From Promethearchaeota archaeon (GTDB lineage Archaea; Asgardarchaeota; Lokiarchaeia; Sigyniarchaeales; SOKP01), in contig JBHLOY010000010.1 of NCBI GenBank assembly GCA_048939995.1, positions 64,001-128,000 on the forward strand: a stretch of 64,000 bases of DNA, in the 5' to 3' direction. The notes under the pieces were generated by a model. The model was not told the origin of the DNA. It worked only from the letters and a program-made list of their open reading frames with translations, and did no database searches. Made by a program: the position numbers and the translations under genes. Numbering within the stretch: the stretch's first letter is position 1; every line of letters begins with the position of its first letter. This document shows, piece by piece, positions 18,102 to 21,438 of this stretch.

Positions 18102-20191
18102 GTGATTAATTTAAGCAAAGCTCATAAACATAAGTGGATCATTACTAGTGCTTGGCCTTATGTGAACGCAAATATTTCTTGAGAGCTTTAAGAATTAGCG
18201 TACTTCCACATCTAGGCAACTTAATAGGAAGCACATTATCAGCAGATGTATTTGCTCGCTTTCTACGAATGAAGGGAGATGAAGTATTATTTGTATCTGG
18301 TTCAGATATGCATGGAACTCCCGTAGCAGTGGAAGCTAAAAAAACAGGTGTTTCAGTAGAAGAATTAGCTATAAAAAATCACAATAAAATTAAGGAATTG
18401 CATAAAAAATGGAAAATTTCATTTGATAATTACACTCAAACGCATAATCCTACACATATCGAATTTGTGCAGAAATTTTATTTAGATATCCAAAAAAACG
18501 GATATATCTTAGAAAAAGATATAGAATCCCTTTATTGTGAAAAAGATAACCTTTTTCTTCCTGATAGGTTTGTAGAGGGGATTTGCCCTCACTGTGGAGC
18601 TGAGAAAGCGAGAGGGGATCAATGTGACAATTGCCAGAAGTTATTGACACCTCTCGAGCTTAAAGAATCGTACTGTTCGATATGTGGCGCAAAACCTATA
18701 CTTCGAAAAACTAAACATTGGTATATGGATTTTCCTAGGCTTCAAAATCAATTGAAGAAATTAATTGAAAAAAATGAAATTATCCCTCAAAATGCTCGGC
18801 AAATGTGCTTAAACAGTATCGAGGAAGGTCTTCCTGAAAGAGCCATTACGCGAGATTTAGAATGGGGTATTCCCGCACCGTTTAAAGGAGCTGAAGGAAA
18901 AACGATATATGTATGGTTTGAGGCTGTGTTAGGTTATGTTAGTGCTTGTTTAGAATGGGCTGACAAGCTAAAAAATCAACCAAAAAAATTTGATTACTTT
19001 TGGAAAGATAAAAATACCAAATCGGTTTATTTTATAGGGAAGGATAATATCATCTTCCATTTAATTGTGTTTCCAGGACTCCTAATGGCATATAATGCCG
19101 ATAAAAAGGATTCTGATAAATTAGTTCTTCCATATAACGTCTCTTCTACAGAATGGTTAATGCATGAAAATGAGAAATTTTCAAAATCTAGAGGAATAGG
19201 GATTTGGATTGATGAGGCGTTAGACCTGGCACCATTGGATTATTGGAGATTCAATTTAGTTTATAATCGTCCGGAATCAAGTGATACCTCATTTTTATGG
19301 TCTGAATTTGAAAATAACATTAAGACTTTAAATGATAACATAGGAAATTTCATTCATAGGACATTAACCTTTATTGATAAACAATTCAATAAGATCATTC
19401 CAGAGAAAGTTGAATATGACAAAGTAGATAAGATTTTTGTTGAAAAAATCAATAGAATAGGCGTTGATGTCGGAAAAAGCTTAGATAATTTTAGTTTACG
19501 TAAGGCAATACGAGATGTTGTGAGTTTTGGAAAAGAAGGAAATGTTTATTTAAACGAAAAGGCACCATGGCATTTAATAAAGAAAGATAAAAAAAAAGCG
19601 GGACATGTATTTAATATATGCGCTCAAGCGGTATATGCTTTGGCAGTTCTTTTAAGCCCATTTACTCCTGGGACAGCAAACAAAATTATTTCATTTTTGA
19701 ATGATCCTAAATTATCCGAATCATCTTGGGATAGTATTAATGAAAATGCTGTCAGTGCAGGAGTTAAAATTAAAAGTCCAGAGCCAATTTTTCAAAAATT
19801 AGATATTGAAGAAATAAAGAATAATTTAAATAAAATCAGAGAAGAAAAGCAAAAGGGAGGAAAAATTGAATTGATATCTTATGATTATTTTAAAAAGTTG
19901 GATATTAGAGTCGCAAAAATAGAATCTATTGAGAAGGTACCTAAAGCAGATAAACTATATAAATTAGGAATCGATATTGGGAATGAGAAAAGGACACTCG
20001 TAGCAGGTTTAGCGGAACACTATAAAATAGATGAGCTAATTAATAAAAAAATTATAGTGCTAACAAACTTAGAGCCAAGAAAATTACGAGGAATTCAAAG
20101 TGAAGGAATGCTGCTTGCTGCTGTGGATAATGAAAAGGTATCTATTTTAATACCAGACAAAGAAATTGAGATCGGGGCAAAAGTAGAATAA
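18102..20191 (+). CDS. metG: Methionyl-tRNA synthetase, two exons: join(18102..18171,18204..20191), 685 aa after splicing
   Basis: Exon 1 (GTG 18102) MINLSKAHKHKWIITSAWPYVNA; exon 2 PHLGNLIGSTLSADVFAR, Zn knuckles, YVWFEA, IGKDN, KFSKS, C-terminal tRNA-binding OB domain. The exons are in different frames, separated by 32 nt. The start codon is less certain than the junction. Confidence 0.95.
18172..18203 (+). other. Putative 32-nt bulge-helix-bulge (BHB) mRNA intron in metG
   Basis: Central helix ACGC 18166-69 / GCGT 18198-201; 3-nt bulges AAA 18170-72 and ACT 18202-04; intron stem 18173-83 / 18187-97; exon stem 18155-65 / 18205-17; contains in-frame TGA 18180-82. Confidence 0.88.
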
Positions 20192-20193
20192 AT

Positions 20194-21438
20194 CTATAAT
20201 TTTAAAGAAAATACTGGATTTAAGCGGGCTATAACTTCTCCTAGATCTAGTTGTAGCATTTTTAAGATTACGTCTCTTCCTCGATATTCAAATTGTAATT
20301 CTTTAACATTCTTAATTATTTTTAATTTATTACGATCTTTTACTAACTCACACACAAAATATCTCTGGTCATTGTATTCCAATATTTTTTTCACATTTTG
20401 AATATCTGGCAAATTATAGCCTCCTCCATGTGCTAAAATATCTACATTTCTCAATAATTCCAATAATTCCAATTTTACCGCTCTTTTTAAAAAATTATTA
20501 TTTTTTAAGGTTATCTCTGAAAGATTTTTCTGTCCCATAAATAGATAACAAGCCATATCTGCTCTAAGAGCGGTAGGAAAAACATTGGAGGTGATATACT
20601 TACAATTGAGATCAGTACAATTACTCCCTAAATACATATTATTATAATCTTTTAAAAACTGGTGTGGTTGATTGCAAATTATTTGAAAATCATTACCAAA
20701 TAGATGATTTGCAATGAGTAATCTTTTTCTGCTTGAAAAATTCAGAGCTTTTTTATTAAAATCTAAGTACTCATCAGCCTCAGAATCAATAAGGATATAT
20801 TGTTTTCCAAAAATGGTATTCTCTTCTAATGCATGTTCTTTTAATGTTTTAGATTGATCAATATACAAACCAATTCCATGTTTATCATCTCTGAATTCTG
20901 GAGCAGAACCATGTATAAAAAAAGTATATGGTGGAAAATCAATATCAGTTAGATTTTTAGTTTTAAAACAATTAATGAAATGGTTTGAGATCCCATAGTC
21001 CCAATTAATTAGAATGTCTTTATAATATAATTCTGTGGATTTTATTTCATCAATCTTCTTAATAAGATCATAGGGGTCTGGTAGTTCATATAATCCTCCA
21101 CATAATATACCACAACAATTAGGTTTTATATTTAGAAAAATTAATTTTTCATTTCCAGATCCCCAATTTAATCTACCGCCATATCCGAGACCAGAATTCC
21201 ATCTGAAATTATTTTTTGATATTGTTTCATCTGGAGAGGAGATAAATGCTGCTTTAGGTTCAAACCCATATTTTTCTTGAATAAGTTGAAATTGAGCAAG
21301 TCCATACTTCATATTAGCTCTACATAGTTTTGAAGCGCCATCATTTAAACCAGTTGAAAAAATAAACTTTTCTGCTCTACTTAGTAACTCAACTTTATCC
21401 ATTTGAGATAAATTCTCAGAAATACTAGAGGTCGCCAT
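20194..21438 (-). CDS. Divergent RtcB-family RNA ligase
   Basis: RtcB-like motifs in order: SPD..G.GYGG, NCCG, SNHF, IHGS, PHQ, AHGGG, E....YR, VIARLNP...K. Confidence 0.75.
   Translation of the reverse strand: MATSSISENLSQMDKVELLSRAEKFIFSTGLNDGASKLCRANMKYGLAQFQLIQEKYGFEPKAAFISSPDETISKNNFRWNSGLGYGGRLNWGSGNEKLIFLNIKPNCCGILCGGLYELPDPYDLIKKIDEIKSTELYYKDILINWDYGISNHFINCFKTKNLTDIDFPPYTFFIHGSAPEFRDDKHGIGLYIDQSKTLKEHALEENTIFGKQYILIDSEADEYLDFNKKALNFSSRKRLLIANHLFGNDFQIICNQPHQFLKDYNNMYLGSNCTDLNCKYITSNVFPTALRADMACYLFMGQKNLSEITLKNNNFLKRAVKLELLELLRNVDILAHGGGYNLPDIQNVKKILEYNDQRYFVCELVKDRNKLKIIKNVKELQFEYRGRDVILKMLQLDLGEVIARLNPVFSLKL

Follow-up and report, generated by a model that had tools for sequence, protein, structure and literature searches.

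The metG gene of this Promethearchaeota genome, which encodes the aminoacyl-tRNA synthetase MetRS, carries a real, frameshifting BHB intron of 32 nt. It is best read as an intron of the cbf5 type that a single sub-clade within a family of Lokiarchaeia (Promethearchaeota) acquired recently, and its interest lies in mRNA splicing in Lokiarchaeia that extends over several genes. The first-pass annotation of the window (the whole stretch of 64,000 nt that was analysed) had joined the intron and a neighbouring RtcB-like gene into a two-gene splicing switch, a proposal that is not supported. The features of the locus are:

16842–18020, plus strand: vWA / zinc-finger gene belonging to the conserved block, found next to metG in 60 loci
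18102–18171, plus strand: metG exon 1, 23 codons and 1 nt, ending in WPYVNA; putative GTG start
18160–18211, plus strand: metG BHB fold with exon stem, central helix, two bulges and intron stem
18166–18169 with 18198–18201, plus strand: central helix, ACGC/GCGT
18170–18172 (AAA) and 18202–18204 (ACT), plus strand: the two bulges
18172–18203, plus strand: BHB intron, 32 nt, frameshifting, holding the premature TGA (18180–18182) of the unspliced frame
18173–18182 with 18188–18197, plus strand: intron stem, 9 of 10 positions paired
18204–20191, plus strand: metG exon 2, from the HIGH motif PHLGN to the C-terminal tRNA-binding domain; stop 20189–20191
20194–21438, minus strand: divergent RtcB-fold protein of 414 aa, convergent with metG, stop 20194–20196; candidate enzyme
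21579–23442, plus strand: 205-aa ORF and AAA-like gene, the conserved block downstream

The interrupted metG gene

The MetRS frame opens at GTG 18102, a start kept across the intron-bearing clade, and runs into TGA 18180–18182 after 26 codons, while PHLGN resumes in another frame. Exon 2 is clearly MetRS (NCBIfam PRK00133, E 2e-204), and the intron sits just before its HIGH motif. Excision of 18172–18203 yields the junction YVNA-IPHLGN and an open frame of 685 aa that agrees with intron-less relatives. The conserved protein is restored when each bulge is cut behind its second nucleotide, and in three variants the cut predicted from the BHB gives exactly the residues of the intron-less relatives: NAIP, NAVP, and again NAIP where the cut is displaced by 1 nt. 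A whole-genome search found a single metG in this genome (98% complete). The essential enzyme would thus depend on EndA and an RNA ligase for its synthesis, as the first-pass annotation had supposed.

The geometry of the fold is canonical, with a 4-bp central helix, 3-nt bulges on opposite strands and both intron and exon stems; the helix is perfect in the source genome and has one mismatch in some relatives. The folding energy of the junction is modest (z -1.8; 11/200 shuffles), and it is the comparative evidence, not folding energy by itself, that places the structure beyond chance. Across 6 sequences 95% of the cells are paired, against 30–39% in slid controls. Within the first clade the intron loop diverges and the stem is preserved through one-sided changes; an altered bulge base predicts Val for Ile at the junction, and both residues are found in intron-less relatives. 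Since the central helix carries one mismatch in 4/6 variants of this clade and the 6 sequences show no two-sided compensations, an EndA of relaxed specificity is assumed. No similar copy of the intron was found elsewhere in the genome, tRNA introns included. Searches for a spliced transcript or an RNA-derived contig with the metG junction returned none, and metagenome contigs searched for intron-bearing or spliced junctions gave no matches.

Distribution and origin of the intron

An insertion at the intron site of metG occurs in six of about 80 genomes from the class. G000, G019 and G010 share the 32-nt intron, and six further assemblies of the same clade raise the number to 9. G067, G118 and G148, which belong to another genus, have this codon interrupted by a BHB intron of 31 nt that is unrelated to the first and has its cut site displaced by one base in the 3' direction. 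The MetRS tree requires two intron gains, forced by well-supported branches. Judged by this tree, the same codon gained introns twice, independently, and the codon before the HIGH motif is an insertion hotspot. When 185,579 species genomes were scanned for the pattern, matches occurred only in the same five metG-intron relatives. Close homologues are labelled mostly Promethearchaeota or Lokiarchaeota.

Splicing enzymes and further introns

The genome encodes a two-subunit EndA, in which a structural subunit accompanies a catalytic one bearing the Tyr/His/Lys triad, as well as a canonical RtcB that adjoins archease on a contig other than that of metG. EndAs of this two-subunit type occur widely among Asgard archaea (bioRxiv 10.64898/2026.10.13.758758), and one report describes them as cleaving non-canonical introns (PMC5829648). 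In the course we propose, EndA would cut the metG pre-mRNA behind nucleotide 2 of either bulge and the exons would be joined by canonical RtcB together with archease, which would restore the frame and the residues preceding the HIGH motif. The tRNA-splicing machinery would handle this intron as routine, as one among several in housekeeping genes. In our judgement the likely explanation is that EndA and canonical RtcB process a tolerated intron of recent origin as a matter of routine, with constitutive splicing as default assumption.

Comparison with intact orthologues confirmed that fwdA (30 nt), uL11 (37 nt), EF-1alpha (33 nt) and purA (30 nt) contain insertions of BHB geometry. For CoA-transferase and PAC2 the support is limited to restoration of the junction, and dnaG shows a 34-nt gap for which scoring did not recover the BHB register. 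All these other split genes lie on contigs different from that of the RtcB-like gene. Splits of uL11 are common in the source family and were not seen in the other families of a 151-genome phylum sample, in which the single uL11 truncation outside the source family lay at a contig end. The intron-bearing gene set varies between close relatives and includes metabolic genes. A de novo genome-wide scan for BHB-plus-ORF combinations recovered metG and fwdA; its 12 candidates showed no enrichment over the 4–26 obtained with false geometries, and such a scan cannot count introns. When about 630 kb of DNA from G023 and G007 were compared with the source genome, a comparison of low power, no intron beyond the preselected genes was found among the matches listed.

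Several further observations concern the same subject. Introns of uL11 occur at three or more positions within the source family, and G057 and G010 apparently possess two each. The canonical rtcB of G137 (contig C222, about 4232–4260) contains a perfect BHB intron of 29 nt at GY|DINCG, and splicing of the ligase mRNA would therefore require the ligase itself. ARAGORN called only 24 tRNAs in G000, many with introns and some with odd anticodons, and no tRNA-Met; these calls suggest that the tRNA genes of G000 are heavily interrupted.

Splicing could instead be rate-limiting and regulated, in which case the availability of EndA and RtcB, set by competition from pre-tRNA or by oxidation of the RtcB cysteine, would tune MetRS, EF-1alpha, uL11 and the other intron genes together. 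Several points are consistent with this idea: the unspliced metG mRNA encodes a 26-aa peptide only, the introns are located in translation genes and catalytic motifs, RtcB is oxidation-sensitive (PMC13247085), the cbf5 intron has been suggested to act in regulation (PMC2738675), and the canonical rtcB of one relative itself carries a BHB intron. However, the metG intron arose recently and has a scattered distribution (6 of about 80 genomes), and close relatives differ in which genes are interrupted, metabolic ones included. A patchy and variable intron set fits tolerated insertions better than a conserved circuit. We consider such regulation, a regulated metG splicing switch included, unlikely. 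It likewise seems rather improbable that the Lokiarchaeia EndA/RtcB pair forms a shared, condition-sensitive checkpoint on the mRNAs of MetRS, EF-1alpha, uL11 and, in one relative, RtcB. If true, such a checkpoint would represent regulated non-spliceosomal mRNA splicing in relatives of eukaryotes, operating without the divergent neighbour gene.

Comparison with known mRNA introns

The closer precedent for the metG intron is the archaeal cbf5 intron (Watanabe 2002; Yokobori 2009), rather than XBP1/HAC1. The cbf5 pre-mRNA of Desulfurococcales and Sulfolobales contains a BHB intron, 19–44 nt long in the cases consulted (PMC2738675). Like it, the metG intron (32 nt) is short, lies in a protein-coding gene at a catalytic motif, has BHB boundaries and needs to be removed for a functional protein. 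It differs from the cbf5 intron in that it interrupts an aminoacyl-tRNA synthetase gene of an Asgard lineage and represents one of at least 5–8 split genes in its genome, whereas cbf5 is a single case. Moreover, the metG introns are recent, repeated gains and the cbf5 intron is one old gain, and splicing of metG is predicted here from sequence alone. A second precedent is the BHB intron in the 5' UTR of Haloferax HVO_1309 (Schwarz 2020, PMC7714728). There too an mRNA is substrate of the archaeal splicing endonuclease, as predicted for metG; however, that intron is untranslated, whereas the metG intron lies inside the coding frame and shifts it.

Non-spliceosomal splicing of XBP1/HAC1 employs IRE1 together with RTCB or Trl1 (PMC13247085). 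The first-pass annotation had likened metG to these systems, and part of this likeness stands: an endonuclease would excise a short intron, a tRNA ligase of the RtcB type would join the exons, and the frame would change. It fails with respect to the RNA motif and the type of target. The metG junction has a BHB for housekeeping EndA in place of a site for stress-activated IRE1, its product is the essential enzyme MetRS and not a transcription factor, and no conserved circuit is apparent. IRE1 sites consist of two separate stem-loops that are cut in their loops; in contrast, the metG junction folds as one BHB with the cuts in the bulges. A search for the IRE1 RNase domain PF06479 was uninformative, matching neither this genome nor any control genome. 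XBP1 itself uses the ordinary tRNA ligase and not a dedicated paralogue.

In the searchable literature, endonuclease splicing of archaeal mRNA comprises cbf5 (PMC2738675) and one Haloferax 5' UTR (PMC7714728). Against this background, an aminoacyl-tRNA synthetase and several housekeeping genes of one Asgard genome are predicted to need it. Introns in several genes give mRNA splicing the look of a routine process in relatives of eukaryotes, and short substrates of the metG type are testable for how BHB introns arise and persist.

The RtcB-fold neighbour

That the intron-split metG is convergent with an RtcB-like gene, 2 bp lying between the stops at 20189–20191 and 20194–20196, was claimed in the first-pass annotation and is confirmed. 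The gene adjoins metG in 54/66 loci of the family; the other 12 comprise five loci cut by contig ends, five without the gene and two with the gene elsewhere, which gives 54/61 among assessable loci. In other families it adjoins metG in 0/15 loci, and two single-contig genomes have both genes hundreds of kb apart. The metG gene is intron-less in 47/53 assessable adjacent loci, and 33 intron-less loci show the same stop spacing of 0–2 bp. The vWA gene upstream accompanies metG with equal constancy (60 loci). G043 has exchanged its native metG for a distant copy at another locus (about 31% identity) and still has the RtcB-like gene next to the vWA gene. Judged by these gene orders, the adjacency predates both intron gains, is independent of the intron and reflects a conserved gene block. 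Thus the expected synteny of metG and the RtcB-like gene exists within the family, yet it is unrelated to the intron; what had been taken for one module is a family-wide background gene order, and the caveat of the first-pass annotation that the adjacency may be coincidental was borne out. In G056 and G066, too, a divergent MetRS encoded elsewhere (about 31% identity) has taken the place of native metG. A promoter and terminator scan with bacterial models, which are not suited to archaea, stayed at chance level.

The fold of the neighbour is that of RtcB (AF2 pLDDT 86; Foldseek E 3e-7 to human RTCB), and a VIA structure comparison gave Z 19.8 to 2epg, with the next match at 4.6. It reached no Pfam or NCBIfam cut-off, and sequence searches of the PDB did not detect RtcB significantly. 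Among 59 diverse homologues D70, N152, H153, H176, H259 and H337 are invariant and C109 is near-invariant. As in RtcB proper (PF01139; 2epg, 4dwq, 8odp), these residues correspond to the metal ligands Cys98, His203, His234 and His329 (PMC10630183) and to the guanylylated His. Unlike RtcB, the neighbour shares only 10–15% identity with that family, has 414 instead of about 490 aa, and reads KPNxC where RtcB has the Asp of DxxC (Asp95; PMC10630183). It furthermore coexists with a canonical RtcB-archease pair in the same genome. The motifs SR, HRKG and GRxxSR are not retained. We take these basic motifs to act in RNA and GTP binding. Since metal ligands and the guanylylated His are conserved, the protein is probably an active enzyme with RtcB-type metal/His chemistry and uncertain substrate.

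Could this protein be a dedicated ligase for metG or for BHB mRNA introns in general, acting in an XBP1/HAC1-like switch? The RtcB fold with its invariant residues would suit such a role, the gene is adjacent in 6/6 metG-intron genomes, and uL11 splits are concentrated in the family where it is common. However, with adjacency in 54/61 loci, two of two independent gains beside the gene are unremarkable, and the convergent orientation means that both genes are not co-transcribed. Loss of the DxxC Asp and of the three motifs points away from this role as well, as does the persistence of the gene in G043 after metG replacement.

Intron-bearing genomes without the gene speak against this role too, and G089 already largely refutes it. 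Judged against the downstream block of 205-aa ORF and AAA-like gene, the gene has been deleted cleanly from contiguous sequence in G007, G023, G089 and G092 (98–99% complete), where the deletion lies between metG and the 205-aa ORF. No match to the gene was found genome-wide in these four genomes, which all encode canonical RtcB. Nevertheless G089, a MAG of 99% completeness and 7% contamination, has uL11 interrupted by a perfect BHB intron of 28 nt and the EF-1alpha P-loop by a frameshifting one of 32 nt. In G137 (78% complete) the gene was not found either, and BHB introns are present in uL11 and inside canonical rtcB. These genomes are MAGs, and related ones are not independent. The supposed co-occurrence of the divergent ligase with BHB mRNA introns hence breaks down in G089: mRNA introns do not need the divergent gene, which on present evidence is dispensable for them and stands outside the splicing mechanism. 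We found no evidence for a dedicated XBP1-like switch and regard it as very improbable. G057 and G013 had also been considered as genomes without the gene and were dropped, because metG is missing as well, which indicates assembly gaps.

The neighbour family is patchy in the phylum (56/151 genomes) and is found outside Asgard archaea too; a literature search on a divergent RtcB family in Asgard archaea found no paper. In a sister family the gene is co-oriented with genes for pyruvoyl arginine decarboxylase and deoxyhypusine synthase, a further point against a role in metG splicing and a lead for a non-RNA substrate. Consequently, annotation of this family as mRNA-splicing ligase is unwarranted on the basis of its metG neighbourhood. 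Genes for HD and GDPD hydrolases often lie near the RtcB-like gene of the sister family, and one protein (P0138, 743 aa) fuses an APH-type kinase domain to an RtcB-like domain. On the other side of metG, the product of 16842–18020 combines an Ssl1-like vWA domain with a PHD/C1/RING-like zinc finger, reminiscent of the TFIIH p44 architecture.

Further explanations for the interrupted frame

Routine splicing has also to be weighed against no splicing at all, with MetRS made from an alternative TTG start (18152 or within the insert) or through a ribosomal frameshift over the hairpin. A 679-aa ORF does begin at TTG 18152, and gene callers use such starts, giving proteins of 640–679 aa. However, a stop closes the upstream frame in G019 and G010, of which the latter is without an internal TTG. 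The product of an alternative start would lose the conserved WIITSAWPY strand, which lines the methionine pocket of MetRS, and frameshifting would insert some 10 additional residues into the active site. We therefore hold an unspliced origin of MetRS to be very unlikely. Assembly error or a pseudogene is hardly credible: although all sequences come from metagenome assemblies, recurrence of the same insertion in 9 independent assemblies, with diverged loop and kept stem, refutes it, and exon 2 is intact at 85–87% identity with no second metG found.

Public annotations of the intron-bearing genes are N-terminally truncated as a consequence of the introns. The public gene calls for intron-bearing metG (P0274–P0283 and P0394–P0397) have a wrong or truncated N-terminus and lengths of 640–679 aa.
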